Source: Tricharina praecox
Taxonomy: Eukaryota
Direction: 5' to 3'
NCBI RefSeq assembly: GCF_024521635.1
Contig: NW_026250425.1
Coordinates: 620,001 to 658,227, forward strand
DNA length: 38,227 nt
This document shows positions 7,015-38,227 of this stretch, piece after piece. Under the pieces are notes generated by a model, which saw only the letters and a list, made by a program, of their open reading frames with translations, was not told the DNA's origin and ran no database searches. The position numbers and the translations under genes were made by a program. How positions within the stretch are numbered: position 1 is the stretch's first letter; every line of letters begins with the position of its first letter.

Positions 7015-8729
7015 ATGTCCGGCAACCTCAAGCGCAAAGCACCCCCGACCCCCTCAAGTACAGCCAAAAAGACGCGTTCAATAGCCTCCTTCTTCAGGCC
7101 GGCAGCTTCACCCAGCAGCTCCAACTCCGGCTCCAGCACCTCGTCGACTAATGGCAGCGGCGACATCGCGACCTCCACGCTCCCAAAATTCAACAAAGCC
7201 ACCTGGCTCTCCACCCTCACGCCTGAGCAGCGTACCCTTCTCTCCCTCGAGCTCTCGAGCATCGGGCCGAGCTACCTCGGCCTGTTGGCCCCTCTCCTCA
7301 CAACCCCACAATTTCTCTCCCTCAAGGCGTTCCTCGCCTCGGAGCGCGGTCCCGTCTACCCACCCGCCCCACAGATCTACACGTGGACGCGCCTGTGCCC
7401 GCTCCCGTCCGTGCGCGTCGTCGTGCTGGGCCAGGACCCGTACCACGGTCCCGGACAGGCCATGGGGCTGAGCTTTTCCGTGTCCCCGCCGACCCCCGCG
7501 CCCCCGTCGCTGGGCAATATATACAAAGCGCTGGCGAGGGATTATCCCGATTTCCGGCCGCCGCCTGGGAGGGGCGGGGATTTGAGCCCCTGGGCGAGGA
7601 GGGGGGTGTTGCTGCTTAATGCAGCGCTCACGGTTAGGAGAGGCGAGGCGGCGTCGCATGCGGGGAAGGGGTGGGAGAAGATTACGGGCGCCGTACTAAG
7701 CCATCTCGCCAAGGGGAGAGGGTGTGTTTTTATGGTGTGGGGCGCGGACGCGCAGAAGAGGGTGAAGGAGGTGGGCATTGATGAGAATAAGCATTTGGTG
7801 CTGAGGAGTGTGCATCCGAGCCCGCTGAGTGCGCATAGGGGTTGGGTGAGTTACCTACCTACCGACGTGGAGCGAGGGGGCGTGGAGAGAGTGAGCGCTA
7901 ATAGTGGGTGTAGTTCGATTGCGGACACTTCAAGAAGGCGAATGAGTGGCTTGAGGCGCGCTACGGTGAGGCGGGACCGATCGATTGGAGTTTGCACGGG
8001 AGTACGCCGGTGGGGGTTAAGAGGGCGCCTGCGAAGGTGGAGGACAAGAAGGTGGAGGACAAGAAGGTGAAGGAGACGGAGAAGAAGGATGATGAGGATG
8101 AGTTCGGCTTTGATGACGAGGAGGAGGCGATGGTCGAGGCGGCTGTGGAGGCGGAGAACGCGGCGAAGGCGGCTGCTGAAGCGGAGAAGGAGGCGGTGGA
8201 GAAGGCGGCGAAGAAGGTGGCCGAGCAGACTAAAGCTGAGGAAGAGGAAGAGGACGAGGCGGTGGAGAAGGCGGCGAAGAAGGTGGCCGAGCAGACTAAA
8301 GCTGAGGAAGAGGAAGAGGACGAGGCGGTGGAGAAGGCGGCGAAGAAGGTGGCCGAGCAGACTAAAGCTGAGGAAGAGGAAGAGGACGAGGCGGTGGAGA
8401 AGGCGGCGAAGAAGGTGGCCGAGCAGACTAAAGCTGAGGAAGAGGAAGAGGACGAGGCGGTGGAGAAGGCGGCGAAGAAGGTGGCCGAGCAGACTAAAGC
8501 TGAGGAAGAGGAAGAGGACGAGGCGGTGGAGAAGGCGGCGAAGAAGGTGCTAGAACAGGTTGAATCTAAGGAAGAAGAGGAGGAGGAGGCTATCGAGGCT
8601 GTCGAGAAGGCAGTGGCGAAGGTGATAGCCCAAGCTAAAGTTGAGGAAGAGGAGGACTCAGAAGACGCTATGGCCATAGACATGGAGGAGGAGACGGCAG
8701 AGTCATCGGATGGCACGGAAAAGGCTTGA
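7015..8729 (+). CDS. UNG1: Uracil-DNA glycosylase (family 1) with a long acidic repeat C-terminal extension, ~548 aa; exons 7015-7845, 7914-8729
   Basis: Motifs GQDPYH, AMGLSFSV, PPSLGNIYK, GVLLLN and HPSPLS. Intron 7846-7913 (GTGAGT..GCTAAT..TAG) joins to FDCGHFKKANEWL...PIDW, which runs in frame into the 7992-8729 ORF. Confidence 0.9.
8190..8549 (+). repeat. Coding minisatellite: 66-bp unit x ~5.5, encoding EAVEKAAKKVAEQTKAEEEEED
   Basis: CCGAGCAGAC recurs at 8221, 8287, 8353, 8419 and 8485. Copies appear identical and are followed by a degenerate copy. Confidence 0.97.
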
Positions 8730-22287: not shown

Positions 22288-22696
22288 TGTAATCAAGTAC
22301 ACTGGGAAAGTACTATACCACTCTACCAAAAGGTATTTTGACGGGTGAACATGATCATCCCAATAGCTACTTAAGGCAAGGATTTCTGAACTGTGACAGT
22401 TTCCCCTCTCTAGGGGCTCACTCCAGAAAGCCTTCAAGTAGTTAACCCCCAATGAGTGATATTTCATGAAAACAATCGAAAACCATCATCCACTGTAAGC
22501 CATGCGATTCCTGAACAACCCAATAGCAGAGGAAAGTAACTGCTCGCAGTGGGAATTGAACTCATTTACTTGGCAGCCATCAAACTGTGATAAAGTACAC
22601 TGGAAAAGTACTATATCACTCGACCAAAAGGTATTTTGATAGCTGAAGGCCATGATCCCAGTAGCTATCTAAGGCCAGGATTTCTGTACTGTGACA
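22288..22696 (-). mobile_element. TRIM copy 1 (409 bp, diverged); LTRs 22586-22696 and 22288-22398
   Basis: Colinear with copies 2-5 but carries many substitutions. Flanks CACGC/AATTT do not match. Confidence 0.88.
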
Positions 22697-22698
22697 AA

Positions 22699-22760
22699 TT
22701 TGATGGCTGAAAGCCATCATCCCAGTATTTGATTAAGGCAAGGATTTCTGAACCGTGACA
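22699..22760 (-). mobile_element. Partial additional TRIM LTR (5' half)
   Basis: tttgatggctgaaagccatcatcccag...gatttctgaaccgtgaca matches the LTR 5' half. Confidence 0.75.
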
Positions 22761-22830: not shown

Positions 22831-22887
22831 TGTCACGGCACGGTCGGACTGGGCTCCAGGTAGACAAGATGGTTGGATGGGTGGACT
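22831..22887 (-). mobile_element. 3' end fragment of a family-B-like LTR
   Basis: Reverse complement ends CTACCTGGAGCCCAGTCCGACCGTGCCGTGACA, like the family B terminus CTACCTGGAGCCTTGCCCGACCGTGCCGTTACA. Confidence 0.7.
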
Positions 22888-22892
22888 GGTGG

Positions 22893-23451
22893 TGTCACGG
22901 CCCGCGACGGAATGACGAAGGGAGGGTCGGCACAAGGATCGGGAGAGTTGGGGGGCAGTGCAAAGGCAGTGCACCGGCAGTGCAAGGATGAGCCGCAGAG
23001 GATTGGGGTCTCTGTGCAGGGAGCAGGGATAGCGCAGTAATGAGACGCAGGAGATTGGGGCTGTGTGCAGGAAGCAGGGGTAGTGCGGCTGCGCAGGGTA
23101 TGAGTCACGGAAGTGGGGTACTGGCAAGGTGGATTTCTCTGGGTCTGGCACACACCCACGGTCATTGTCAGGTTGCTGGAAGAAGTGGAGGATTTCCTAT
23201 ATAAACGGGCCGTTGCCCCTCTGTATTTAGTTCTTCACGCAACAACTTGTTAATTCAAACACTGTTACCTCTGTCCTTACCTCGGCTGCCGTCTGCGCCG
23301 TAGTGCTTGTCCCTGCCTCTGTTCTCAGTTGCCGTCTGCACTGAGCCCTGCCTCACCTTGTCCCCTGAACCCATCTTGCCTCTGCCGAACCCAGAAACCG
23401 ATCCCCAGCCCGACTTCGCTACCTGGAGCCTTGCCCGACCGTGCCGTTACA
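22893..23451 (+). mobile_element. Family B gypsy 5' LTR (559 bp)
   Basis: TGTCAC...GTTACA termini and TATATAAA at 23198. Homologous to the LTRs at 27067, 27582 and 37531. Followed by a PBS-like site and the gag ATG. Confidence 0.88.
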
Positions 23452-23490
23452 CTTTGTTGCGCCCCCTATCTCGCCACCTAGCGAACTACT

Positions 23491-24474
23491 ATGGCCACCA
23501 ACACTCAGGTACCCAAGGTCCCCCAGCAGGACGAAGTACCAGTGGCGCCTCCCTTCTACCGAGAAATTCCCGCCGCCATCTATTGTCACAGTTCAGAAAT
23601 CCTGGCCTTAAGTGGCTACTGGGATGATGGCCATCAGCCATCAAAATACCTTTTGGTCGAGTGGTATAGTACTTTCCCAGTGTACTTTATTACAGTTTGA
23701 TGGCTGCAAAGGTCATGAGTTCAATTCCCACTGTGAGCAGTTACATTCCTCTGCTGCAGCGTTGTTCAGGAATTGCATGGCTTACAGTGAGTGACGGTTC
23801 ATGATTCTTATCATGAATTATCACTCATTGGGGGTTAACTACTTGAAGGCTTCCTGGAGTAAGCCCCTAAAGAGGGGATACTGTCACAGTTCAGAAATCC
23901 TGGCCTTAAGTAGCTACTGGGATGATGGCCATCAGCCATCAAAATACCTTTTGGTCGAGTGGTATAGTACTTTCCCAGTGTACTTTATTACATCTATGAA
24001 CAACTCGAAATCATCGTCAATCATGATGCACCCGCCGATGATGCAACCTTGATGGGGTTGTACAACGAATTCAGAATCCTCGCCCGCGCAATCACCCTAT
24101 CCCCAATAGCCGTACCGGCCTGGCGATTCGACGACCTTGAAGAACAACTTGCTGACGCCCGCCGCATCGCCAACCGCCTCGCCACCGTCGAAATCCTACC
24201 TCAAAGCCGCGCTGAGCGTGTCCTAGAACCAGCCATGTTTGACGGAACGCGAGAAGCTGGAAGAGTTCGTTGCGCAACTTCGACTCAAGCTGTACAGCTA
24301 CCCAGCCCGTTTCCCAACTCCAGCACTCCGAATGGCCTATGCCTTCAACTGCTTGGAAGGCTGCGCCCAAGCCCAGATCCTGCCTTACATCGAGAATCAC
24401 AACAACACCCTCACCGGCGCTGATGCAATCATCACACTCCTGAACAACGCATTTGGTGACCCTGACCCAGCGGC
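23491..24474 (+). pseudogene. Family B gag relic, interrupted by TRIM copy 2, frameshifted and truncated by an LTR
   Basis: Removing the TRIM plus one TSD gives MATNT...PAAIY|EQLEII...EPAMFDGTRE. After a frameshift it continues KLEEFVAQLRLKL...AYAFNCLEGCAQ...LNNAFGDPD, which is retrotransposon gag-like. Confidence 0.82.
23584..23992 (+). mobile_element. TRIM copy 2 (409 bp); LTRs 23584-23694 and 23882-23992; TSD TCTAT
   Basis: 111-bp TG..CA direct repeats with 1 difference, PPT AAAGAGGGGATAC before the 3' LTR, and a perfect 5-bp TSD (23579-23583/23993-23997). No protein-like ORF. Confidence 0.95.
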
Positions 24475-25211: not shown

Positions 25212-26643
25212 TTATGGGCAGCTTAAAGAAAGGTCGGCGAGTGCTCTACCTTGTGAAATGGCTCAACTACCCCAAACGGCGGGACTGGACGCACCAGCCA
25301 TCCGGCAACTTCTCAGTCGGCCGTCGGGAAAAGCTACGCGAGTCCAATTGCAAAAGTCCCGATGCGCCAAGGGACTACCGGCTCACCGATGAGTAAGTGT
25401 TTTTTTCCCATGTGGTTTTCTTGAACTCGGGCAGGTAGTAGGATGAAGGGGATGAAGGACTTCATCCACAGTTATCAGGTTGGGATAAAGGCGAGGACTT
25501 GGGTGCTTCGGGCTGAAGCCTCGTGGAAGGGGAGATGGTGTGACACCCCGATAGGTATCGGAGGCCACGACGGTCGCAAGACATGTGATTAGATAGTTCG
25601 GGTGATTACATTAGAGTTGTGAGCCGAACGGATAGTTAGAAGCGATCCGTCACAGTTCAGAAATCCTGGCCTTAAGTAGCTACTGGGATAATGGCTTTTA
25701 GCCATCAAAATACTTGTTGGTCAAGTGGTACAGTATTTTCCCAGTGTACTTCATTACAGTCTGATGACTGCCAAGGTCATGAGTTTGATTCCCACTGCGT
25801 GCAGTTACTTTCTTATGCTGCAGTGTTGTTCAGGAATTGCATGGCTTACAGTGAGTGATGGTTTATAATTCTTATCATGCAATATCACTAATTGGGGGTG
25901 AACTACTTGAAGACTTCCTGGAGTAAGCCCCTAAAGAGGGGATGCTGTCACAGTTCAGAAATCCTTGCCCTAAGTAGCTACTGGGATGATGGCCTTCAGC
26001 CATTAAAATACCTTTTGGTCAAGTGGTATAGCGCTTTCCCAGTGTACTTTATTACAATGGAGGACAAGTTAGGAAAGAGAAGAGCAAACAGATTCCAGAG
26101 TCTAGACAGTGATCAGAGATGCGGGTGAGCGGGGTAACAATCCAGAGGGCTTTGGGATCACCGATCATAGGACCCCGCAGTAGAAACTCCGGTCAAGGGA
26201 AAAACTGTTATGACAAGAGAATCAAACATCGACCTATGGGGGCAGAGAACCCCGAGCGATGAACTCTGCCGGCGCATAAGGAAAATAGTTGCCTGGGAAC
26301 TCCGATATATCTTGGGCGCGTGGTGTTAACCACCTGCCTAGTCGAGAAGACTATCCGAAGAGAGCTGACGACGGCTCAAGGCTAGGCCGTGGGGAACTCC
26401 GAAGCAAAGGAAGCAACGGGGCCGTATCAGGCCGCACTCTAGAGGAATCACATGCTGAGGATCGGAACGGCTATAAGTGTCAAACCGAGCGGGCAACCGA
26501 ACTGAACGCAATCATAGCACCGAACAACCATTGAAGAAACACCCTTAAGATTATTCCGTTGTGAATTATCGAAATCCCTGACTTTTATTCTATACTCGAT
26601 AATACCATTAATTCCGACGTCCTGAACTCGTTCCAGTCTCACA
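25212..26643 (+). mobile_element. Family A 3' remnant: chromodomain tail, PPT and 3' LTR (25539-26643, split by TRIM copy 3)
   Basis: MGSLKKGRRVLYLVKWLNYP...DYRLTDE matches the pol end of the intact element. PPT GGAAGGGGAGATGG. LTR is homologous to 28383-29071. Confidence 0.88.
25648..26056 (+). mobile_element. TRIM copy 3 (409 bp, diverged), inserted in a family A LTR
   Basis: Colinear with copy 2. Host LTR resumes after it (AGCGATC|..AGGACAAG). TSD is not preserved. Confidence 0.88.
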
Positions 26644-26840: not shown

Positions 26841-27581
26841 TGGACAACCAAGAAGAATGGGAGGTTGAAGAGGTCCTCGACAGCCGGAACCTCAGGGGCA
26901 AACTCCAGTACCTGGTGAAATGGAGAGGCTACGCGGCACCAACATGGGAACCAGAGGAGAACCTTACCGAGGTACAAGCTGTGAACGATTTCCATCGACG
27001 ATACCCCATGCAGCCTGGACCAGTCAAACTTGCTCTGGTGGGAACTCGAGCCTTAGGAGGGACTACTGTCACGGCTCGCGACGGAACGACGAAGGGAGGG
27101 TCGGCACAAGGATCGGGAGAGTTGGGGGGCAGTGCAAAGGCAGTGCACCGGCAGTGCAAGGATGAGTCGCAGAGGATTGGAGGCTGTGTGCAGGGAGCAG
27201 GGATAGTGCAGTAATGAGCCGCAGGGGATTGGGGCTGTGTGCAGGAAGCAGGGGTAGTGTGGCTACACAGGGTATGAGTCACGGAAGCAGGGTACTGGCA
27301 AGGTGGATTTCTCAGGGTCTGGCACACGCCCACGGTGATTGCCAGGTTGCGGGAAGAAGTGGAGGATTTCCTATATAAACGGGCCGTTGCCCCTCTCTAT
27401 TTAGTTCTTCACGCAACAACTTGTTGATTCCACAACTGTTACCTATGTCCTTGCCTGGGCTGCCATCTACGCCGTAGTTCCTGTCTCCTCCCTTGTTTCT
27501 CAGTTACCGTCTACAGTGTGTTCCGTCTTGTTCTGTCTTCCCGACTCCTCTTGCCCAAGGCCAACCCAGTTCGTGTCCACC
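26841..27581 (+). mobile_element. Family B 3' remnant: chromodomain, PPT and LTR (from 27067), cut at 27581
   Basis: [38 protein letters not shown] chromodomain; AGGAGGGACTAC|TGTCAC junction. Confidence 0.85.
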
Positions 27582-28382
27582 TGTAACGGCACGGTCGGGC
27601 AAGGCTTCAGGTAGCGAAGCCGGGCTGGGGATCGGGTTCAGGGTTCCGCAGAGGCAAGACGGGTTCAGGGGACAAGGTGCGGCAGGGCTCAGTGCAGACG
27701 CCAACTGAGAACAGAGGCAGGGAGAAGCACTACGGCGCAGACGGCAGCCGAGGCAAGGACAGAGGTAACAGTGGTTGAATTAACAAGTTGTTGCGTGAAG
27801 AACTAAATACAGAGGGGCAACGGCCCGTTTATATAGGAAATCCTCCACTTCATCCCGCAACCTGGCAATGACCGTGGGCGTGTGCCAGACCCTGAGAAAT
27901 CCACCTTGCCAGTACCCCACTTCCGTGACTCATACCCTGCGCAGCCGCACTACCCTTGCTTCCTGCACACAGCCCCAATCTCCTGCGACTCATTACTGCG
28001 CTATTTCTGCTCCCTGCACACAGCCCCCAATGGAAATCGTTCACAGCTTGTACCTCGGTAAGGTTCTCCTCTGGTTCCCATGTTGGTGCCGCGTAGCCTC
28101 TCCATTTCACCAGGTACTGGAGTTTGCCCGTGAGGTCCCGGCAGTAGAGAACCTCTTCGACCTCCCATTCTTCTTGGTCGTACACGATTACCGGAAGTGG
28201 TGGCGGTGTAATTTGTCCAGGAAAGGGATCGTCAGCCCAGGCATGAAGGAGGAATACAGGAAATGTTCGGTGCTTCAGAACGGCGTCTGGGATGTCCAAC
28301 TTGTAGGCGTGGCTTCCGATTGTCCGTATCACGCGGTACGGACCATGGTGTTTGTTTTCCAGCTTGCGACTGGGTCTCTCGG
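27582..28382 (-). mobile_element. Family B integrase C-terminus (GPY/F module plus chromodomain) and 3' LTR (27582-28030; LTR start and PPT deleted)
   Basis: RPSRKLENKHHGPYRVIRTIGSHAYKL...[17 protein letters not shown]. The LTR is roughly 95% similar by eye to 22893-23451. Confidence 0.87.
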
Positions 28383-29071
28383 TGTGAGACTGGGACGGGT
28401 TCGTGTCGTCGGAGTCTATGGTAATATCGAGGATAGAATAAAAGTCAGGGATTTCGATAATTCACAACGGAATAATCTTAAGGGTGTTTGTTCGATGGTT
28501 TGTTCGGTGCGATGATTGTAGTTTGTTCGGTTGCACGCTCGGTTCGACTTATAGTCGTCCCGATCCTCAGCACGTGATTCCTCTAGAGTGCGGCCTAACG
28601 TAGCTCCGTTGCTTCCTTTGCATCGGAGTTCCGCGGCCTAGCCTTGAGTCGTCGTCAGCTCTCTTCGGATAGTCTTCTCGACTAGGCAGGTGGTAAACAC
28701 CACGCGCCCAAGATAGATCGGAGTTCCCGAGCAATTATCTCCCTCATGCGCCGGCAGAGTTCTTCGCTCGAAGTTGTCTGCCCCCATCGGTCGATGTTCG
28801 ATTCTCTCGTCATAACAGTTTTTTCCTGGATCGGAGTTCCTACTGCGGGGCCCTATGATCGGAGATCTCAAAGTCCTCTGGACTGTTATCCCGATCTCCC
28901 GCATCTCCGATCACTGTCTAGACTCTGGAATCCGTTTGCTCCCTCCTTCCTATCTTGTCCTTGATCGCTTCCAACTATCCTTTCGGCTCGCAACTCTATT
29001 CTAATCACCCGAACTATCTGATCACATCTCTTGCGACCGTCGTGACCTCCGATACCTATCGGGGTGTCACA
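28383..29071 (-). repeat. Family A 3' LTR
   Basis: TG..CA termini; 3 differences from 35061-35749 found by eye. Confidence 0.95.
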
Positions 29072-29212
29072 CCATCTCCCCTCCCACGAGGCTTCGGCCC
29101 GAAGCACCCAAGTCCTCGCCTTTATCCTAACTTGATAACTGTGGATGAAGTCCTCCATCCCCTTCATCCTACTACCTGCCCGAGTTCGAGAAAACCACAT
29201 GGGAAAAAACTC

Positions 29213-32200
29213 TTACTCATCTGTGAGCCGGTAGTCCCTCGGCGCATCGGGATTTTTGCGATGAAACTCGCGTAGCTTTTCCCGACCGCCTACTGAGAAG
29301 TTGTCGAATGGCTCGTTCGTCCAGTCCCGTCGTTCGGGGTAGTTGAGCCATTTGACGAGGTAGAGCACTCGTCGACCTTTCTTAGAGCTGCCCATAACCT
29401 CATCGACGTCGTATTCTTCGTTGCCTTCCACATCATCGGCCTCTCGTAAGATTTGAGAGGGATCCGGTGGTGCTCGGGTGCCGGCTCGGAACGGTTCAAC
29501 GAGCGAGACGTGAAAGACATTATGAATCTTCCACTTCCTTGGCAGAGTGAGCTTGACAGCGAGCGGCGATACGATCTTCTCGATTTGAAAGGGACCATGG
29601 TTCTTGTGGTCCAACTTCCGCGAGGGTCGGCGGGTTTGAATGTTCCGCCCATTGAGCATTACCAAGTCTCCTACTTGATAAGCCGGTGCCTCCTGACGAT
29701 GTTGATCTGCATACTTGCGCATTCGTTCGCGCGTTCGTTCGAGGGTCTTGATGTTTTCCTCGTGGACTGTATGCATCCAGTGAGCGTAGACCTTGCTGGC
29801 GGGGTTGAGAGAATTTGCCGCAGCAGGGTTTGTCGCCGACGGGTGGTATCCGAAATTCGCATAGAAGGGCGACATTCCGGTTGCCGATGTAACCGAGTTG
29901 TTGTAGGCAAACTCAGCCATCGGTAGGAGATTCACCCAATCGTTCTGTTCGTAGTTGACGAAGGAGCGGAGGTATGCTTCGATCGTCTGGTTGAGGCGTT
30001 CGGTTTGTCCATCCGTCTGTGGGTGGAACGCTGTTGACATCCGGGGCTTAATGCCTAGCAGCCGGATGAATTCTTTCCATGTACCCGAGGTAAACCGTGA
30101 GTCTCGGTCCGACACTATGTCTGCTGGTAATCCGTGAAAGCGCCATATCTCGCGGGCAAAGATCTTCGCGAGATCCTCGGCTATCTTTCCATCCTTAGGT
30201 AGGGGGATGAAATGCGCCATCTTGGTGAAGCGGTCGACGACCACCCATAGCTGGTCGCATCCGTTGGATTCCGGTAGGTCGGTAATGAAGTCCATGGCTA
30301 TTGATTGCCATGGGGTGTATGGTAACTCGAGGGGATTGAGTAGTCCATACGGCTGGTGCCTTGTTGCTTTGTCCTTCTGACACTGCGCGCAACTCCGGAC
30401 GAAGTCTATAATCTGCTCGTCCATCTTTGGCCACCAGAAATTGCGTCGGATAAGTTCGATAGTCTTGTCCTGGCCCATATGCCCCGCGACTTTCGTATCG
30501 TGTTCCGACTCGAGGATGTGTCTGACGAGTTCCTTATCGTCTGGTACCCATAGCCTTTCTTTCCTATACAGGCACCCCTCTTCCATCCTCAAAATCCTGG
30601 CCTTTCGGCCCATCCTGCCGGAGTCCCTACTCTCGGCGGCCAGTTCCCAGGCCTTTCGGCCTTCCGACTCAGTGTCCTTCTGAGCCGCGTCCCCGTTCGT
30701 GTCCTTGATGCTGCTCAGAGCCTCCTGATACCCAGCATCTTTCTTTCCTGCCTTCCTGACCCAACCCAGAAATTCTTCATTCCACTTTGGCACGGGGATT
30801 GATTGTAGCCGAGTTGACGAAACCAGGAACACGGTGCTTTCGCCTCCGGTGCTGATTGATGAAACTCTCGAATCGTCGCCTGCAAAGTGTGATTTATGCA
30901 GGATCGTCGTAATCGGCTGATCTTCACCCCCCCCTTTTTCAGGGCGGTACTCCGGGCGCCTGGATAATGCGTCAGGCTTGCCGTTCTGGCTGCCGGGCCG
31001 GTAGTAGATTTTGAAGTCGATGCCAGCGAGTTCTTGTGCCCATCTCGCCTGCCGTCGATTGAGTACTTTCGTGGTTGTGAAGTACTCAAGGTTCTGGTGG
31101 TCGCTGTACACCTGGATCTGGTGTTTTGCTCCCTCAAGGTATTGCCGCCAGCGTTTGAAAGAGTCTACTATCGCGAGTAGTTCCTTATCGTGAATCTCAA
31201 AGTTGATTTCGGCTGGGGTAAACTTTCTTGAGTGGAACGCAACTGGGTGTAACTTCCCATCCTCTGTCCTTTGAGACAGGACCGCGCCCAACGCGAAGTC
31301 CGAAGCGTCGGATTCCACCATGACAGGTAATTCTGGGTTGAAGTGCCCGAGAATCGGTGCCGTGGTGAACCTAGACTTCAGCTCCTCGAAGGCCAGTTCC
31401 ATCTCCGCTGTCCATCTCCAATCCTTCCCTTTTTCTTTTGTGCTCTCGGTCAAGGGTCTCGTGATCTTTGAGAAATCCTTGATGAAGCGCCTGTAAAAAT
31501 TGGCGAACCCAAGAAAGGCTTGTACTTCCTTCAGGGACCGCGGCGCCTCCCATGAGAGCACAGATTCCACCTTGTCCTTAGCCATCTCAATTCCATCTTG
31601 GGATATCACGTATCCTAGGAACTCGACTCTCCCTGTCGACCAGACACACTTCTCTGGTGAGATTGCCAACTTATTTTCTTCCAACCTCTTTAGTACCTCG
31701 ATGACTATCTTGTCATGCTCCTCGTGCGTCTTCGCATAGATGAGGAGGTCATCGATGTACGCGACCAGTCCCAGGTCCAACATATCCCGAAATATGTGGT
31801 TAATCATGTCCTGAAACGTCGCTGGAGCGTTGGTCAGCCCAAACGGCATGACCAAAAACTCAAATAGTCCGTATCGACAGCGGAAAGCCGTCTTCCACTC
31901 GTCACCTTCCTTGATGCGGATAAGGTGATAGCCATTCTTCAGATCAATCTTGGTGAAGACTTTCGCACCCCTGACTCGGTCTTGCAACTCTGCCATGATC
32001 GGGAGTGGGTAGCGATTGGCTACGGTAATCTTGTTGATACCGCGATAGTCGACACACAATCGGAGACCCCTGCCGTGCGCCTTTGGTACAAATAATATCG
32101 GCGCCCCGGCTGGTGATTTAGATCTTCGAATCTTGCCTGTCTGGAGCATCTCCTTGAGCCACTCTCTGAGGGCCTCAAGTTCTTTCTCTGACAGCGCATA

Positions 32201-33022
32201 GATAGGACCCCATGGAGGAGTCTCTCCTTCCTTGAGATCGATTGCGTGGTCGTAGGACTTGTGGTCGGGAAGCTTATCAGCTGCTTCCTTGCTCATGATG
32301 TTGGCATATCGTCTGAACTTCTCCGGAAGCAGATTTATGGGTGGATCTGATTCCGGGCCAGCTGAGACGTATCCGATAATGCAAGCCTCCGAATTGTGAA
32401 CGACAGACGTGTCAAGTTCCATCGGAAAGCTGGTTGCTTGTTGCAAGGTGCATTGTTCCTTGCATCGGGTGCTGGTGAAGCGAATTTTCTGTGCTTCATT
32501 CTCCCACAACCCTGTCGGTTCATGCTTAGCCATCCACCAATACGGGAGGTAGGCATCGCAGTCGTCCAAGGGAGCCACTTCGAAGGTTTCGTTGGTGTAG
32601 TGCCTCCGGTGTTGAAGGAGCATCGGCATTGTATAATATTCCCCGGCTCCTTCCACTATGGTTCCGTGGAAGTCCTTGATTTCCACCGGCTTAGGTCTTT
32701 GAATGAGAGGCAACCCAAGTTCTCGTGCAAGGCTTCGTTTGATGATCGGAATGGCACATCCTGTGTCAAGGAGTACTCGGATCCGTCGTCGCTTGTGCTC
32801 AGACCAGAGGAGCATCATTTCTATGATTGGTCGTGGTCCGCTGACAGGTTTTGGGGGCTCACACCCTGAGGCGCTCGGCGCGGTTGGACTCGTAGGAATA
32901 GGTTGGTCCGTTCGTCTTCGCTTATCTCTGGATTCGCTGTCGATATCCTGAGGCCGTGGTCTCTTCGTTCCGCAAACATATACACTTGGCCGTCCAGTCT
33001 GCGGAGTGCTGGGGCCGCTCAA
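29213..33022 (-). CDS. pol: Pol polyprotein: protease, RT, RNase H, integrase, chromodomain
   Basis: [92 protein letters not shown]. Domain order is gypsy-type. Confidence 0.96.
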   Translation of the reverse strand: MSGPSTPQTGRPSVYVCGTKRPRPQDIDSESRDKRRRTDQPIPTSPTAPSASGCEPPKPVSGPRPIIEMMLLWSEHKRRRIRVLLDTGCAIPIIKRSLARELGLPLIQRPKPVEIKDFHGTIVEGAGEYYTMPMLLQHRRHYTNETFEVAPLDDCDAYLPYWWMAKHEPTGLWENEAQKIRFTSTRCKEQCTLQQATSFPMELDTSVVHNSEACIIGYVSAGPESDPPINLLPEKFRRYANIMSKEAADKLPDHKSYDHAIDLKEGETPPWGPIYALSEKELEALREWLKEMLQTGKIRRSKSPAGAPILFVPKAHGRGLRLCVDYRGINKITVANRYPLPIMAELQDRVRGAKVFTKIDLKNGYHLIRIKEGDEWKTAFRCRYGLFEFLVMPFGLTNAPATFQDMINHIFRDMLDLGLVAYIDDLLIYAKTHEEHDKIVIEVLKRLEENKLAISPEKCVWSTGRVEFLGYVISQDGIEMAKDKVESVLSWEAPRSLKEVQAFLGFANFYRRFIKDFSKITRPLTESTKEKGKDWRWTAEMELAFEELKSRFTTAPILGHFNPELPVMVESDASDFALGAVLSQRTEDGKLHPVAFHSRKFTPAEINFEIHDKELLAIVDSFKRWRQYLEGAKHQIQVYSDHQNLEYFTTTKVLNRRQARWAQELAGIDFKIYYRPGSQNGKPDALSRRPEYRPEKGGGEDQPITTILHKSHFAGDDSRVSSISTGGESTVFLVSSTRLQSIPVPKWNEEFLGWVRKAGKKDAGYQEALSSIKDTNGDAAQKDTESEGRKAWELAAESRDSGRMGRKARILRMEEGCLYRKERLWVPDDKELVRHILESEHDTKVAGHMGQDKTIELIRRNFWWPKMDEQIIDFVRSCAQCQKDKATRHQPYGLLNPLELPYTPWQSIAMDFITDLPESNGCDQLWVVVDRFTKMAHFIPLPKDGKIAEDLAKIFAREIWRFHGLPADIVSDRDSRFTSGTWKEFIRLLGIKPRMSTAFHPQTDGQTERLNQTIEAYLRSFVNYEQNDWVNLLPMAEFAYNNSVTSATGMSPFYANFGYHPSATNPAAANSLNPASKVYAHWMHTVHEENIKTLERTRERMRKYADQHRQEAPAYQVGDLVMLNGRNIQTRRPSRKLDHKNHGPFQIEKIVSPLAVKLTLPRKWKIHNVFHVSLVEPFRAGTRAPPDPSQILREADDVEGNEEYDVDEVMGSSKKGRRVLYLVKWLNYPERRDWTNEPFDNFSVGGREKLREFHRKNPDAPRDYRLTDE

Positions 33023-35022
33023 AAATCCTCCGGCTCACTCTCATTCCTTTCCCAGAATGGAGGGGCCTCCGTCATTGCTTCATCCTCCACCACAACCGCC
33101 GCAGCCTTGTGTTGCTTGGACCTCGGTCGAGTGGGTTCGGCATCCTGGGTGTCCCGCTTTCTCTTTGTCACGGATGACACCTTTGGACTCTCGGGGAGTT
33201 CGGTACCCGCGACTGTTTTTCTGGCGTAGCATTGGAAGGTTCGGTGGCCGTCTCGTCCGCAACGCCAACAGTCGCACTTGGATCCTTTGTGGGCATCGAT
33301 CTCCTTCTGGGGAACCCCTACCAGAGCCTCCTTTGCTCCTGCGTAGATGTCCCCTTCCCTTGTCCTTCCCTTCCTGACTCCTGTTGCTTCCTTGGCCTTT
33401 CGGCCCTCCGGGGACTCCCCGCTTTCCTTGCGGCCCCCGGGGTCTCTTCCCTTTCCTTGGCCCTGCCGGCCGTTGCCAGGTCCCTTCCGGTCGCCGCCGG
33501 AACCCTGGCTACCCGATCCCCCTTTCCTCATTGCCCTTGCCTTTTTCAGCGCGTCCCGTCGTTCCACATGGTTGCCAGCTCTGAGCACCGTTTCCAGGAA
33601 GTCTTCATCGTCTTCGTAGGGTTCGGTGTGCTGGTTGAAGCACATATCCACGATGTCGGTGGTCATGGCCTGGTTGACTATGTCTTGTAGCGGTTCGCCG
33701 GTGGCGCGAGCGATCATGTTGAGCGATCGGAAGGAGGTCATGTAAGCCTGAATGTCTCCTTTGTATTCGAGGGCCCACATCCTTCTTAATGCGTTCGCTC
33801 CTTCCTGCGTGTCGCGGTACGCCTCCTTGAGTGCCTCTTGGTACGCCTGCCAGGTATCTTCCAAGTGTAGCTGTCTCAGGCTTTTTCGACGGGCCTGATG
33901 CCATTCTGCCGCTGTCCCTTCCAGTCGGGATCCCACCCACGCTATCTTCTGCTGCTCGTTTGTCTCTGGGTGGAACTCAAGATATTCTTCAACTGAGTCC
34001 CACCATGGACGGAAGGCTGTTCTTTGCTTGCCATCGAACGGCTTGGGCTCTTTCATTTTAAGCTTGATGGCCCTCGGGTTCGATGCGGAGACGGCAGCAG
34101 CGATGATCCGAGCGAAGCGACTCTCTTCGTCTTCGTCGTCTTCTCTTGGTAGCGGAGCGTGTCGGTGACGGGGCGGCGAACGACGCGGCAAGGGGATGGA
34201 ATCGTCATCATCCGATGGTTCCTCATCCGAGGGATCACCTCCAAGGTTAGTCACCGGACGTCTTGGGGGTGGAGGAGGAGGGGACATTCCTGCACCTGCC
34301 GGAGTTTCCCTGGTTGCTGACCTTTCTGCCCGCGATCCTCCTCTTGGGGTAGTGTTTACCCACTCCGGGGCCTTTTCCTTCGCCTTCCCTGTCCTTACCT
34401 CTACAGCCTTCAATTTTTTCTCTGCTCGAGCGATTTTTTCCTTGATTCGCTGTTGCTCCTTGTAGAGGTATTCTGCCTTCTCTTCCTGTTTCCCTGCCCA
34501 AATTTCCACGTTGCGGTTGTACACCGCTTGCTCCCTGCGTTGTTCGACTTGCGCCGTTTCGAGGAACACGATGGCGTCTTGTAGCCGAGCGTTTGCGACG
34601 CTTTGCAACTCGCGGTTGTCTTCGTCTTTCTGGTTACGTTCTCGAATGACTGCCCATACGTCGCTGCTCAGGGCGTGCGTCGCGTTCGCTACTGTTGACA
34701 GCTCGGTTCGAAGCCATTCTGTATTCATTTCGGCATTGTGAGCGTAGAGGTTGTACACATACTTGACCCCATCGCAGAGTTGTTCGTAGTTCCTTCTGAT
34801 TTCCTGCATTCGGGAGTCCTCTTCGTTGAACTTCTGATCGCATGCTTGGTAAAGCTGGCGCAGGTCTCTTTGTGCCGTTTGGTATTGGTGGTTCATCAGC
34901 CTGAGCCAGGCTGCCGGGTTTCGTACTTCGACGGTTTCGGATGCTTGCGGGATGCTAACGAGCGCATTGCTCAGGGTCTGAGGAAGTTCGAGGCGGAGCA
35001 TGTCGAGGTTTGAGGAGGACAT
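33019..35022 (-). CDS. gag: Gag polyprotein (667 aa)
   Basis: Starts just after the 5' LTR/PBS. Coiled-coil N-terminus, EPKPFDGK..W..LEGTAAEW capsid-like region and CCHC knuckle CWRCGRDGHRTFQC. Confidence 0.92.
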   Translation of the reverse strand: MSSSNLDMLRLELPQTLSNALVSIPQASETVEVRNPAAWLRLMNHQYQTAQRDLRQLYQACDQKFNEEDSRMQEIRRNYEQLCDGVKYVYNLYAHNAEMNTEWLRTELSTVANATHALSSDVWAVIRERNQKDEDNRELQSVANARLQDAIVFLETAQVEQRREQAVYNRNVEIWAGKQEEKAEYLYKEQQRIKEKIARAEKKLKAVEVRTGKAKEKAPEWVNTTPRGGSRAERSATRETPAGAGMSPPPPPPRRPVTNLGGDPSDEEPSDDDDSIPLPRRSPPRHRHAPLPREDDEDEESRFARIIAAAVSASNPRAIKLKMKEPKPFDGKQRTAFRPWWDSVEEYLEFHPETNEQQKIAWVGSRLEGTAAEWHQARRKSLRQLHLEDTWQAYQEALKEAYRDTQEGANALRRMWALEYKGDIQAYMTSFRSLNMIARATGEPLQDIVNQAMTTDIVDMCFNQHTEPYEDDEDFLETVLRAGNHVERRDALKKARAMRKGGSGSQGSGGDRKGPGNGRQGQGKGRDPGGRKESGESPEGRKAKEATGVRKGRTREGDIYAGAKEALVGVPQKEIDAHKGSKCDCWRCGRDGHRTFQCYARKTVAGTELPESPKVSSVTKRKRDTQDAEPTRPRSKQHKAAAVVVEDEAMTEAPPFWERNESEPEDF

Positions 35023-35060
35023 ATCGATAGAAATCGGTGACTGTAACCTTAAGATTATAG

Positions 35061-35749
35061 TGTGAGACTGGGACGGGTTCGTGTCGTCGGAGTCTATGGT
35101 AATATCGAGGATAGAATAAAAGTCAGGGATTTCGATAATTCACAACGGAATAATCTTAAGGGTGTTTGTTCGATGGTTTGTTCGGTGCGATGATTGTAGT
35201 TTGTTCGGTTGCACGCTCGGTTCGACTTATAGTCGTCCCGATCCTCAGCACGTGATTCCTCTAGAGTGCGGCCTAACGTAGCTCCGTTGCTTCCTTTGCA
35301 TCGGAGTTCCGCGGCCTAGCCTTGAGTCGTCGTCAGCTCTCTTCGGATAGTCTTCTCGACTAGGCAGGTGGTAAACACCACGCGCCCAAGATAGATCGGA
35401 GTTCCCGAGCAATTATCTCCCTCATGCGCCGGCAGAGTTCTTCGCTCGAAGTTGTCTGCCCCCATCGGTCGATGTTCGATTCTCTCGTCATAACAGTTTT
35501 TTCCTGGATCGGAGTTCCTACTGCGGGGCCCTATGATCGGAGATCTCAAAGTCCTCTGGACTGTTATCCCGATCTCCCGCATCTCCGATCACTGTCTAGA
35601 CTCTGGAATCCGTTTGCTCCCTCCTTCCTATCTTGTCTTTGATCGCTTCGAACTATCCTTTCGGCTCGCAACTCTATTCTAATCACCCGAACTATCTAAT
35701 CACATCTCTTGCGACCGTCGTGACCTCCGATACCTATCGGGGTGTCACA
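35061..35749 (-). repeat. Family A 5' LTR
   Basis: Near-identical to 28383-29071. Confidence 0.95.
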
Positions 35750-37096
35750 TCTCCTCTCCTCAAAGGCGCGGATGATTGCAAGGAGTTCTTTGTCATAGAT
35801 CTCGTAGTTGCATTCTGCCGGGGAGTGTTTCTTGAAATAGAATGCCACTGGGTGCAGGATTCCCTCGTCGTCGTGCTGAGATAGGACCCCGGCAGAGACG
35901 TAGTCGGAGGCGTCAGTTTCCACTACTATCTGCCGATCGTAGTCGAAGTGCCGGAGGATCGGGGCCGGCGTGAATGCTGTTTTTAGTTCGTCGAATGCTT
36001 TCTGCTGTTCCGGCCCCCACACGAAGGGAACATACTTTCCATCCTCCTTCTTGGTCAATGCTGTCAATGGGGATACCACCTTGGAATAGTCTTGGATGAA
36101 TTGCCGGTAGAAGTTCGCAAATCCCAGAAAGCATTGCACATCGGTGACGGTACTAGGCTCCTCCCATTCCAGTATGCAGGAGACTTTCGCTGGGTCCATC
36201 TTGATCCCGTTTGTTGTAATGATCAGTCCCAAATACTTGACTTCCGTCTGGTGGAAATGACCCTGACATGTTTCCGGTGTTCATCTAAGGATCCGCTGTA
36301 AATGAAGACGTCATCGATGAATGCGGTACAGAAGCCGTCGAGGAACAGGCGTAGTGTAATAAAGTACACTGGGAAAGTACTATACCACTCGACCAAAAGG
36401 TATTTTGATGGCTGATCGCCATCATCTCAGTAGCTACTTAAGGCCAGGATTTCTGAACTGTGACAGTATCCCCTCTTTAGGGGCTTACTCCAGGAAGCCT
36501 TCAAGTAGTTAACCCCCAATGAGTGATAATTCATGATAAGAATCATGAACCGTCACTCACTGTAAGCCATGCAATTCCTGAACAACGCTGCAGCAGAGGA
36601 ATGTAACTGCTCGCAGTGGGAATTGAACTCATGACCTTTGCAGCCATCAAACTGTAATAAAGTACACTGGGAAAGTACTATACCACTCGACCAAAAGGTA
36701 TTTTGATGGCTGATCGCCATCATCTCAGTAGCTACTTAAGGCCAGGATTTCTGAACTGTGACACGTAGCACATCGTTGATCAGAGCTTGGAAGTCGGCAG
36801 GGGCGTTGGTGAGACCGAAGGGCATGACGAGGGATTTGAAGAGCCCATAGCGTGTCCGGAAGGCAGTTTTCTACTCTGCTCCTTCCGCCATCCGCACAAG
36901 GTTGTAGGCACCGCGGATATCCAGGGTGGTGAAGTATTTTGCCCCGGATAGCCGCATCAGAGTTTTTTGGAGAAGTGGGAGTGGGTACCTGTTCTTAATT
37001 GTTCCTTCTTTCAGGCCCCTGTAATCCACACACAGGCGTAGGGAGCCATCTGATTTCTTGACAAACAGAATTGGCAATGCTGCTGGAGAGGAAGAG
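35750..37096 (-). pseudogene. Degenerate gypsy pol (RT-RNase H), probably family B, interrupted by TRIM copy 4
   Basis: [23 protein letters not shown] (W to stop)..[27 protein letters not shown]..(deletion)..[20 protein letters not shown]. Confidence 0.88.
36355..36763 (-). mobile_element. TRIM copy 4 (409 bp); LTRs 36653-36763 and 36355-36465; TSD CGTAG
   Basis: The two LTRs are identical and the TSD is perfect (36350-36354/36764-36768). Removing it restores the RT frame. Confidence 0.96.
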
Positions 37097-37117: not shown

Positions 37118-37526
37118 TGTCACAGTTCAGAAATCCTGGCCATAAGTAGCTACTGGGATGATGGCCATCAGCCATCAAAATACCTTTTGGTCGAGTGGTA
37201 TAGTAATTTCCCAGTGTACTTTATTACAGTTTGATGGCTGCAAAGGTCATGAGTTCAATTCCCACTATGAGCAGTTACATTCCTCTGCTGCAGCGTTGTT
37301 CAGGAATTGCATGGCTTACAGTGAGTGACGGTTCATGATTCTTATCATGAATTATCACTCATTGGGGGTTAACTACTTGAAGGCTTCCTGGAGTAAGCCC
37401 CTAAAGAGGGGATACTGTCACAGTTCAGAAATCCCGGCCTTAAGTAGCTACTGAGATGATGGCGATCAGCCATCAAAATACCTTTTGGTCGAGTGGTATA
37501 GTACTTTCCCAGTGTACTTTATTACA
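37118..37526 (+). mobile_element. TRIM copy 5 (409 bp); LTRs 37118-37228 and 37416-37526
   Basis: Nearly identical to copies 2 and 4. Flanks GTATC/GTAGT do not match. Confidence 0.93.
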
Positions 37527-37530
37527 GTAG

Positions 37531-38227
37531 TGTAACGACACGGTCGGGCAAGGCTCCAGGTAGCGAAGTCGGGCTCGGAATCGGGTTCTAGGTTCGGCAG
37601 AGACAAGACAGGTTGAGAGGACAAGGTGAGGCAGGGCTCAGTGCGGACGGCAACTGAGAACTGAGACAGGGACAAGGACTACGGCGCAGACGGCAGCCGA
37701 GGCAAGGACAGAGGTAACAGTGATTGAATGAACAAGTTGTTGCGTGAAGAACTAAGTACAGAGGGGCAACGGCCCGTTTATATAGGAAACCCTCCACTTC
37801 TTCTCGCAACCTGACAATAACCGTGAGCGTGTGCCAGACCCTGAGAAATCCACCTTGCCAGTACCCCGCTTCCGTGACTCATACCCTGCGCAGCCGCACT
37901 ACCCCTGCTTACTGCACACAGCCCCAATTCCTCCGGCTCATTCCTGCATTGCCGCCCGCGCAGCCCCTTGCACTGCCCCCGCGCTGCCTTCCCACCCCTG
38001 TTCCGACTCTTCCTCGAACGTCCCGTCGCGAGCCGTGACAGTAGCCCCTCCTAAGGCTCGAGTTCCCACGAGAGCAAGTTGAACTGGTCCAGGCTTCGTT
38101 GGGTACCGTTGGTGGAAGTCGTCCACTGCCTGTACGTCCACAAGGTTCTCCTCAGGTTCCCACGTCGGTGCCGTGAAACCCCTCCACTTGACTAGGTACT
38201 GGAGTCTTCCCCTCAGCGTTCTGCTGT
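37531..38227 (-). mobile_element. Family B 3' end: chromodomain, PPT and 3' LTR (37531-38040); continues beyond the window
   Basis: [40 protein letters not shown] is homologous to 22893-23451. Confidence 0.88.

Follow-up and report, generated by a model that had tools for sequence, protein, structure and literature searches.

How does an LTR element of only 409 bp, which codes for no protein, begin its reverse transcription? The question is raised by a 38,227-nt stretch of the Tricharina praecox genome (contig NW_026250425.1, positions 620,001 to 658,227; hereafter the window), which holds five copies of a TRIM and one truncated LTR:

22288..22696, reverse strand: copy c1, old, LTRs matching at 93 of 111 positions
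22699..22760, reverse strand: truncated LTR consisting of U3 and the 11-nt primer, ending exactly at ..CAGCCATCAAA, followed by TT and then by c1
23584..23992, forward strand: copy c2, 409 bp, organized as LTR, G, PBS, 175-nt non-coding core, PPT, LTR
25648..26056, forward strand: copy c3, old, LTRs 97/111, located in a family A LTR
36355..36763, reverse strand: copy c4, the youngest, LTRs 111/111, TSD CTACG
37118..37526, forward strand: copy c5, LTRs 106/111, no TSD

Copy c2 interrupts the gag leader of a chromovirus of family B, where the 5-bp TSD TCTAT borders it on both sides (23579-83 and 23993-97), and a contig of sequencing run X2 contains an empty-site joint for it (23576>23991). The assignment as a TRIM rests on 111-bp LTRs, a 187-nt internal part, a PPT and 5-bp TSDs in two of the five copies (c2 and c4). 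The window's list of open reading frames has none of at least 150 aa wholly within c2, and the frame at 23968-24423 (forward strand) begins in the last 25 nt of the element and continues into the flank. The TRIM is non-coding and has none of the Ty3/gypsy (Tf1/sushi-like) Gag-Pol by which Tf1-type elements are defined. Since it has a PPT, TSDs and young copies, it must also have a PBS. The parts of c2 that bear on where this PBS lies are as follows:

23584..23694, forward strand: 5' LTR, 111 bp rather than 114, TGTCACAG...TTATTACA
23584..23634, forward strand: putative U3, 51 nt, TATA-less
23635..23645, forward strand: candidate self-primer CAGCCATCAAA inside the 5' LTR, the presumed first 11 nt of the RNA and start of R
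23661..23693, forward strand: predicted U5 stem-loop within the primer:PBS loop, GUGGUA..UAUUAC closing AGUAC..GUACU
23696..23706, forward strand: PBS TTTGATGGCTG, 1 nt past the LTR, exact reverse complement of 23635-23645
23782..23833, forward strand: long internal hairpin
23869..23878, forward strand: PPT AAAGAGGGGA, followed by the spacer TAC and the 3' LTR
23882..23992, forward strand: 3' LTR, with the primer sequence (23933-23943) and an A-box-like motif, and without a downstream B box

A single base, G (23695), separates the LTR end (..TTATTACA, 23694) from the PBS. The two LTRs of c2 are identical at 110 of 111 positions (23584-23694 versus 23882-23992), and the U3 holds, besides the palindrome GATGGCCATC, a tandem GCCATCA GCCATCA extending into the primer. 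The internal hairpin aligns to miRNA-type models with non-significant E values of 0.88 and 2.6; as a guess, it might act in packaging or dimerisation.

Three statements of a first-pass annotation of this DNA stand on inspection: the exact complementarity between 23635-23645 and 23696-23706 one nucleotide after the 5' LTR, its perfection in c2, c4 and c5 (11/11 Watson-Crick pairs in each), and the absence of a TGG-type PBS, none of which occurs at offsets 0-3 from the LTR. The copies with perfect pairing are those whose LTR pairs are most similar (110, 111 and 106 of 111, respectively), and decay is confined to the old copies, with 10 Watson-Crick pairs and one G:U in c1, and eight Watson-Crick pairs, one G:U and two mismatches in c3. 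All of these changes are transitions. Among the five copies there is no compensatory double change, the substitutions in c3 breaking pairs and those in c1 leaving one G:U. Diverged LTR contigs from two sequencing runs, with 6-11 differences per ~110 nt, have no variant listed within primer or PBS.

The complementarity is rare by several measures. When the LTR was shuffled, a complement 11 nt long or longer, with its start 0-3 nt past the LTR, arose in 1 of 5000 trials (p about 2e-4). The primer motif, allowing at most one mismatch, occurs 15 times in the window versus 0.63 expected, a count reached in 0/100 shuffles. Inverted 11-mer pairs separated by a loop of 30-250 nt number 12 in a scan of the whole window; seven lie in TRIM copies, two at the LTR/PBS junction of chromovirus A, two in a hairpin of the A LTR, and one elsewhere. 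In the predicted fold of 23635-23712, the primer:PBS helix closes the U5 stem-loop with an energy of -26.4 kcal/mol (z -3.9), equaled by 1 of 200 shuffles.

The same layout recurs in two Ty3/gypsy chromoviruses of the window:

28383..35749, reverse strand: full-length Ty3/gypsy chromovirus A, LTRs 28383-29071 and 35061-35749, gag 33019-35139, pol 29213-33034
22886..23451, forward strand: 5' LTR of the family B chromovirus, TGTCACGG...GTTACA, with a TATATAAA box

Chromovirus A encodes RT, RNase H, integrase, a Tf2-type SH3 and a chromodomain, and its LTRs are 99.6% identical over 690 nt (the aligned segment, 28382-29071 versus 35060-35749, is one base longer than the annotated LTRs). Its candidate self-primer CCTTAAGATTAT (35150-35161) pairs over 12 nt with a PBS (35047-35058) that begins 2 nt past the LTR; the sequence is unrelated to that of the TRIM, 1/5000 shuffles match it, and the predicted fold has the same shape (z -4.4). 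In family B, the 8-nt candidate primer CGCAACAA (23238-23245) is complementary to TTGTTGCG (23454-23461), an extent of pairing found in 80/5000 shuffles (p about 0.016). A TATA box lies 70 nt before the primer in A and 40 nt before it in B. Covariation across families had been proposed as a check on self-priming, and A and B show it, with the same architecture built from unrelated sequences.

The first-pass annotation had read these signals as self-priming from a Pol III start. Position, rarity, fold and the parallel in A and B uphold the self-priming part, and the Pol III start is only plausible. We consider it probable that reverse transcription of the TRIM is primed in the manner of Tf1, by the 11 bases at the beginning of the TRIM's own RNA. 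Tf1 RNA pairs with its PBS through its 5'-most 11 bases, and is cut by RNase H between bases 11 and 12 (PMC7175516; for Tf1 see also PMC4600332). By analogy, the TRIM RNA would start at 23635, and its 5' end (CAGCCAUCAAA, the start of R) would fold over the 50-nt U5 loop to pair with the PBS one base past the LTR. A helper's reverse transcriptase would supply the RNase H that cleaves after base 11, the liberated 3'-OH would be extended through U5 and R, and strand transfers of the kind usual for LTR elements would follow. For Gag, RT/RNase H and integrase the TRIM would depend on a self-priming chromovirus resident in this genome.

The likeliest helper is family B because it shares with the TRIM the LTR ends TGTCAC(A/G)G...TTACA, the PPT junction GAGGG..TAC|TGTCAC and the PBS pattern TTACA-N-TTTG-N-TG. 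When the TRIM was compared by BLAST with the remainder of the window, TRIM copies being masked, only 11-16-nt matches appeared (E 0.19 or worse). Since the TRIM has no nucleotide similarity to A or B beyond these short junction motifs, the helper's identity is one that we infer.

The RNA on which self-priming would depend may be made by Pol II, from the 51-nt U3 or by read-through, or by Pol III from tRNA-type boxes. The Pol III case turns on four features:

23651..23654, forward strand: TTTT (LTR positions 68-71), the only T-run of at least four in each LTR
23654..23664, forward strand: A-box-like motif TGGTCGAGTGG in U5 (LTR positions 71-81), 10/11 to the A-box consensus TRGCNNAGTGG
23718-23728, forward strand: B-box-like motif AGTTCAATTCC, 9/11 to GGTTCGANNCC, 24 nt downstream of the LTR and past the PBS
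23705..23733, forward strand: tRNA-like 3' half in sense orientation, with anticodon-stem 3' strand, variable loop AGGTC and T arm, containing the B-box-like motif

Pol III would initiate at about 23635 from this split promoter, with box A in U5 and box B past the PBS, a reading that complements self-priming. Only the 5' LTR would then be promoter-competent, and TTTT would end the RNA in the 3' LTR, leaving a 20-nt R; the element would on this reading be TRIMp3-like. The two motifs stand in sense orientation 53 nt apart in four of the five TRIM copies, and the rest of the window has no such pair; simulated sequences give 1.5 of them per window counting both strands, or ~0.008 per 409-nt element; the motif tolerances were set after the sequence was seen. 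The A box begins 19 nt past the primer start, as first reported, and this spacing fits the usual start-to-A-box distance of tRNA genes. It had been counted as the second of two independent signals for the start; their independence is weaker than stated because the 5' end at 23635 comes from the analogy with Tf1 only. The TATA-less, 51-nt U3 of the TRIM contrasts with the TATA boxes of A and B, and Cassandra, Helenus and Ajax provide precedents. Finally, 23705-23733 matches 28 of 29 bases of the variable loop and T arm of a metagenomic tRNA-Thr(TGT) (L080; ARAGORN default call), 17 of the 29 bases being the search seed and 11 of the remaining 12 matching.

Against this, neither ARAGORN at default settings nor Rfam (gathering threshold, and E up to 10 on 106 nt) finds a tRNA, the acceptor and anticodon arms are missing, and the T stem has two mismatches. 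A 'tRNA-Ser' called at 23650-23738 by ARAGORN with relaxed (80%) thresholds is at noise level because it is one of 35 such calls in the window. In the 5' LTR, TTTT would occupy +17..+20 of this RNA, and could under Pol III transcription be either a weak terminator that defines the 20-nt R or an obstacle. No T-run of at least four occurs in the 300 nt after any TRIM copy, and once an 11-nt primer has been taken from a 20-nt R, the initial strand transfer would have only 9 nt to work with. The position of the start, 23635, is likewise inferred. Judged on these motifs, Pol III transcription is a tentative proposal, and its combination with self-priming, in which a promoter split by the LTR/PBS boundary would drive an RNA from 23635 to the TTTT of the 3' LTR that is primed by its own first 11 bases, is rather unlikely to hold in full. 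An origin of the tRNA-like half by read-through copying of a tRNA primer was rejected because copying would leave an antisense remnant, and the half is in sense orientation.

Sequence data from elsewhere touch on the element in several places. The 17-mer around box B was used to scan metagenomes and gave 82 loci, three of them in tRNAs and none a TRIM copy (0/82; longest BLAST match 29 nt). Data from four sequencing runs consist of contigs, which carry no start, end, strand or polymerase information. Metatranscriptome contigs of X13 (23678-23920) and X16 (23779-23929) span the core and the 3' U3, and may be DNA carry-over. X13 and X16 have no cover on the flanking B gag, and LTR cover in X12 is low or absent; neither observation counts as evidence. 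In X12, an adapter is joined at 23661, probably at a single-read tip. The X2 run also yielded a 327-nt contig (23659-23985), equal to one 298-nt LTR-plus-core period plus 29 nt, which fits an assembly-graph cycle (through overlapping R, a tandem array or clipped branches) and favours no reading.

A host RNA might instead use the PBS in trans, for instance half a tRNA or a fragment of one, as happens in copia-type elements and fungal Helenus, with the match in the LTR incidental or secondary; tRNA anticodon loops are complementary to the PBSs of most fungal Helenus TRIMs (PMC10886601). We regard this as very improbable here, since the exact complement of the PBS sits in the TRIM's own LTR (p about 2e-4) and two unrelated co-resident elements are self-complementary as well, with other sequences. 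Moreover, the primer has no CCA end and, to the eye, does not appear to resemble an anticodon loop, lacking a U33-type layout. Most improbable of all is that the long-range helix is a chance match or a structural signal for packaging, dimerisation or circularisation without priming, for although the PBS can also pair with the primer copy of the 3' LTR over a 226-nt loop and the LTR holds further palindromes, no other PBS candidate follows the LTR and chance yields the match once in 5000.

Self-priming by the TRIM's own RNA would align it with the self-priming Ty3/gypsy elements of the Tf1/sushi group, among them Tf1 and Tf2 of Schizosaccharomyces pombe, Tj1, Maggy, Skippy, Cft-1, Boty, Grasshopper and Afut1. 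As in that group, an LTR-internal stretch of 11 nt complements a PBS adjacent to the 5' LTR, primer and PBS are separated by a structured U5 loop (predicted for the TRIM), the host is a fungus, and self-priming chromoviruses share the genome. Unlike Tf1, the TRIM is a 409-bp, non-coding and non-autonomous element with a U5 loop of only 50 nt, and its primer cleavage and RNA start are deduced from the Tf1 model.

Turning to the proposed promoter, the first-pass annotation knew of no described Pol III-driven, self-primed TRIM. Pol III-type TRIMs ('TRIMp3': Cassandra, Helenus and Ajax) are in fact already in print (Kojima 2024, PMC10886601), and our literature search found no paper describing a self-primed one. 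None of the three is self-primed, occurs in Ascomycota or has a promoter across the LTR/PBS boundary. The TRIM resembles Helenus in size (311-1263 bp in Helenus), 5-bp TSD, fungal host and sense tRNA-like A and B boxes without a functional tRNA (PMC10886601). In contrast, the whole tRNA-like unit of Helenus is contained in its LTR, an arrangement that the TRIM does not share, its box A being in the LTR and its box B after the PBS. Fungal Helenus elements have PBSs that match tRNA anticodon loops or 3' ends, use Copia helpers and, according to the author, have no LTR/PBS complementarity (PMC10886601), whereas the TRIM PBS is not of TGG type and matches its own LTR. They are reported from Basidiomycota only (PMC10886601, Table 1; the word 'Ascomycota' appears in neither main text nor supplement), and the host of the TRIM is a Pezizomycete, its PDI matching the one from Tricharina praecox at 98% identity; an Atlas search with this PDI was uninformative on taxonomy.

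Cassandra shares with the TRIM a Pol III promoter, which is a candidate one here. Cassandra RNA is described as running from the 5' LTR into the 3' LTR (PMC10886601), so that 18 bp are duplicated at its ends, a length similar to the 20 nt that separate 23635 from TTTT in the TRIM; transcription of Cassandra has been demonstrated experimentally, according to the same source. Unlike the TRIM, Cassandra is a plant element with 5S-type boxes A and C wholly in the LTR and a tRNA-type PBS, TGGTATCAGAGC (PMC7215508). tRNA-derived SINEs are likewise short, non-coding retroelements with A and B boxes near the 5' end, and differ in having no LTRs, PBS or PPT and in being copied by LINE machinery via target-primed reverse transcription.

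TRIMs reveal how little sequence the mobility of an LTR element requires. A self-primed TRIM, if confirmed, would mean that the Tf1 priming signal fits into ~70 nt and acts in trans with a helper RT/RNase H, and would offer a very small substrate for studies of fold-back cleavage. Such elements scatter tRNA-like motifs and A and B boxes across TE-rich regions, and can mislead tRNA and PBS predictors. If the boxes do function as a Pol III promoter, TRIMp3, a class proposed only recently, would widen to Ascomycota and to Ty3/gypsy helpers, a new way of restricting the promoter to one LTR would be added, and the RNA 5' end required for self-priming would be fixed without a Pol II promoter. Should both readings hold, the element would be without precedent among TRIMp3s, both in being self-primed and in parasitising self-priming chromoviruses rather than tRNA-primed elements.

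The right half of the window is a nest of LTR retroelements in which a non-coding element of 409 bp, a TRIM, is present five times. All five copies share the same layout, in which a 111-bp LTR with the ends TGTCACAG...TTATTACA is followed by a single G, the PBS TTTGATGGCTG, a core of ~175 nt, the PPT AAAGAGGGGA, TAC and the second LTR. The LTR length was set by the TG..CA ends and the TSDs; the 114 bp returned by the repeat finder include 2–3 flanking bases that match by chance.

TRIM copies and a truncated LTR
22288–22696, minus strand: copy c1, LTR pair 93/111 identical, old
23584–23992, plus strand: copy c2, LTR pair 110/111 identical, TSD TCTAT
25648–26056, plus strand: copy c3, LTR pair 97/111 identical, old
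36355–36763, minus strand: copy c4, LTR pair 111/111 identical, TSD CTACG
37118–37526, plus strand: copy c5, LTR pair 106/111 identical
22699–22760, minus strand: truncated TRIM LTR (U3 plus the 11-nt primer)

Copy c2 is an insertion into an element of chromovirus family B, because the public sequencing run X2 contains the empty-site joint 23576>23991. It lies in the family B leader, c3 is within an LTR belonging to another, older element of family A (25212–26643; 88–92% identical to the full-length A), and c5 directly adjoins LTR fragments of families A and B; with c3 counted, at least three of the five copies sit in or against other retroelements.

The primer CAGCCATCAAA (23635–23645 in c2, LTR positions 52–62) is the exact reverse complement of the PBS (23696–23706). 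Pairing is 11/11 in c2, c4 and c5, as the first-pass annotation had read from the sequence; c1 forms 10 Watson-Crick pairs and one G:U, and c3 eight Watson-Crick pairs and one G:U with two mismatches. The complementarity is real and beyond chance. The primer/PBS motif (at most one mismatch) occurs 15 times in the window versus 0.63 expected, a count reached in 0 of 100 shuffles, and in only 1 of 5000 LTR shuffles did a complement of 11 nt or longer start 0–3 nt past the LTR. When the whole window (38,227 bases) was scanned for 11-mers with a reverse complement 30–250 nt downstream, 12 rows came back: seven from TRIM copies, two from the element A LTR/PBS junction, two from a hairpin of the A LTRs and one from elsewhere. 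Within the five-copy TRIM family there is no compensatory primer/PBS change, and old copies show decay only; self-priming can explain this, because the PBS of each new copy is expected to derive from the primer, as work on the S. pombe element Tf1 reportedly indicates. Diverged LTR contigs from runs X2 and X12 (6–11 differences per ~110 nt) carry variants at 23633 and 23650 and none in 23635–23645 or 23696–23706, a weak hint of constraint on both sites.

The TRIM is probably primed in the manner of Tf1, riding on chromoviruses that prime themselves. The Tf1-type mechanism, proposed at first pass, draws support from several sides: the complement sits where a PBS must be, directly after the LTR; that position carries no TGG (tRNA-type) site; and in the predicted fold of RNA 23635–23712 the 11-bp helix closes a small hairpin and the U5 stem-loop (−26.4 kcal/mol, z −3.9; 1 of 200 shuffles folds as well). 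Most telling is the parallel design in co-resident autonomous elements, A and B, with unrelated sequences. This mechanism is established for Tf1, whose RNA has its first 11 bases paired to the PBS and is cleaved by RNase H between bases 11 and 12 (PMC7175516); the TRIM has the same 11-base pairing, and its RNA start at 23635 is placed by this analogy. Tj1 is likewise described as self-priming (PMC4600332), and PMC6934838 lists many gypsy elements of fungi with this property.

Two further observations concern the primer. The truncated LTR ends exactly at the primer sequence, the predicted RNase H cleavage point, followed by TT and then the complete c1; this end could reflect chance (~1 in 100), a deletion, or the footprint of an aberrant reverse-transcription product. 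The plus-strand stretch 23620–23645 contains a palindrome, GATGGCCATC, and a GCCATCA GCCATCA tandem overlapping the primer, so that an RNA beginning further upstream could pair with the primer in a competing hairpin.

Chromoviruses A and B
28383–35749, minus strand: element A, full-length Ty3/gypsy chromovirus, LTRs 99.6% identical over a 690-nt HSP
22886–23451, plus strand: LTR of family B, a second chromovirus family
27067–27512, plus strand: family B LTR
27582–28031, minus strand: family B LTR
37529–37947, minus strand: family B LTR

Element A, apparently young and intact, has open gag (706 aa) and pol (1273 aa) frames that encode a Ty3-type capsid and a Pol with protease, RT, RNase H, integrase, a Tf2-type SH3 and a chromodomain. 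Its 12-nt self-primer CCTTAAGATTAT, with TATAAG 70 nt upstream, lies ~100 nt from the LTR 3' end and has a perfect complement 2 nt past the LTR, equalled in 1 of 5000 shuffles; the predicted primer:PBS fold has the same shape as that of the TRIM (z −4.4). In family B, an 8-nt complement, equalled in 80 of 5000 shuffles, joins the candidate self-primer CGCAACAA (23238–23245), which starts 40 nt past a TATATAAA box, to TTGTTGCG (23454–23461). LTR/PBS complementarity is therefore kept while the sequence differs among the TRIM, A and B. Such covariation between families, which the first-pass annotation had proposed to look for, counts against a shared host tRNA primer.

By BLAST, the TRIM has no match longer than 16 nt in the rest of the window. 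Its LTR starts with TGTCACAG (TGTCACGG in the truncated LTR) and that of family B with TGTCACGG; both end in ..TTACA, the PPT junctions read GAGGGGATAC/TGTCAC and GAGGGACTAC/TGTCAC, and the sequences past the LTR TTACA-G-TTTGATG and TTACA-C-TTTGTTG, respectively. Family A differs from the TRIM at all four sites, so these short motifs point to family B as the best candidate for its helper. Summed contig depth in run X2 is ~17,000–84,000 over the flanking B gag region versus ~80 over the TRIM core; family B would be very highly expressed, provided that X2 is RNA.

Transcription of the TRIM by Pol III from a split tRNA-type promoter is a possibility that we raise tentatively. The A-box-like TGGTCGAGTGG (23654–23664; 10/11 to the A-box consensus) is present where the first pass had placed it, starting 19 nt past the primer start, the usual distance in tRNA genes. 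The B-box-like AGTTCAATTCC (23718–23728; 9/11 to the B-box consensus) lies 53 nt apart from it, also in sense orientation. Both the 19-nt spacing and the inferred U3, which is only 51 nt and, unlike that of A and B, has no TATA, fit Pol III. At tolerances picked after the sequence was seen, the window holds four A/B-box pairs, all within TRIM copies (four of the five), and Markov-simulated windows hold 1.5 on average (at least one in 74 of 100 simulations), which by arithmetic gives ~0.008 expected per 409-nt element on one strand; the occurrence is suggestive. In a metagenome scan with a 17-mer around box B, three of 82 loci fell in tRNA genes (ARAGORN, default setting), and none of the 82 was a TRIM relative. 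Of the 29 positions of TRIM 23705–23733, which span the anticodon-stem 3' strand, the variable loop (AGGTC) and the T arm, a tRNA-Thr(TGT) in the metagenomic locus L080 matches 28, among them 11 of the 12 bases outside the search seed; on this match, the stretch just past the PBS is very likely tRNA-derived.

Other observations weigh against Pol III. Neither ARAGORN (default setting) nor Rfam, the latter also with the E cut-off relaxed to 10 over 106 nt, finds a tRNA in the TRIM, and its tRNA-like region lacks the acceptor and anticodon arms. Relaxed ARAGORN makes 35 tRNA calls across the window; a 'tRNA-Ser' at 23650–23738 is among them and was set aside as noise. The TTTT at +17 to +20 of the proposed RNA cuts both ways. 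The element itself and the 300 nt past each TRIM copy have no other T-run of four or more. A start at 23635 and a stop at TTTT would give a 20-nt terminal duplication, compared with 18 bp in Cassandra, whose RNA starts in the 5' LTR and ends in the 3' LTR (PMC10886601); with the 11-nt primer removed, 9 nt of the 20-nt R would be left for first strand transfer. The first-pass annotation saw two independent signals converging on 23635: the motif spacing holds, but the agreement is weaker than it looks, because the start was itself borrowed from Tf1.

The TRIM or part of it occurs in 20 of 22 listed runs, three of the 20 recorded as RNA, all as contigs; those of four runs were compared over 23500–24070 and carry no start, end, strand or polymerase information. 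Metatranscriptome contigs, in which DNA carry-over is possible, cover the core and 3' U3 (X13, 23678–23920; X16, 23779–23929). In X2, which we guess to be RNA, a 327-nt contig over 23659–23985 has the length of one LTR-plus-core period (298 nt) with 29 nt more. It resembles a closed assembly-graph cycle and fits either RNA with ends joined by the R overlap or tandem LTR-core arrays, which are described for Cassandra (PMC7215508).

Elsewhere, the TRIM core forms a long, nearly perfect hairpin, CAGTGAGTGA..TCACTCATTG (23782–23833, plus strand), with only non-significant miRNA-model matches (E 0.88 and 2.6). At 8046–8683, a 242-nt direct repeat occurs as nine overlapping copies (start-to-start 12, 54 and 66 nt; 61–100% identical to the reference copy) that fall within long open frames of both strands, probably a gene for a repeat-containing protein. 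A protein disulfide isomerase gene (4953–6071), 98% identical to its Tricharina praecox counterpart, places the host in the Pezizomycetes.

The Pol III-driven TRIM proposed at first pass is not new as a kind; already known are Cassandra (5S type, from plants), Helenus (tRNA type, with its fungal reports confined to Pucciniales and a few Agaricomycetes) and Ajax (5S type, from nemerteans), as described in the available text of PMC10886601, where the word 'Ascomycota' is absent from the main text and supplement. The literature searched yielded no self-primed TRIM, and the available text of a bivalve TRIM paper mentions self-priming of other elements only (PMC6934838). According to PMC10886601, both boxes of Helenus belong to a tRNA-like unit within the LTR, whereas in the present TRIM the LTR end and PBS split the pair. 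Fungal Helenus PBSs are complements of the anticodon loop or the 3' end of a tRNA, and the author found no complementarity between the LTR tRNA-like sequence and the PBS; the PBS of the present TRIM, in contrast, is complementary to its own LTR. Fungal Helenus apparently depends on Copia elements, whereas the candidate helper here is a chromovirus. The available text of PMC10886601 does not cover self-priming in a TRIM, a box A/box B pair that the LTR end and PBS separate, an ascomycete host or a chromovirus helper.
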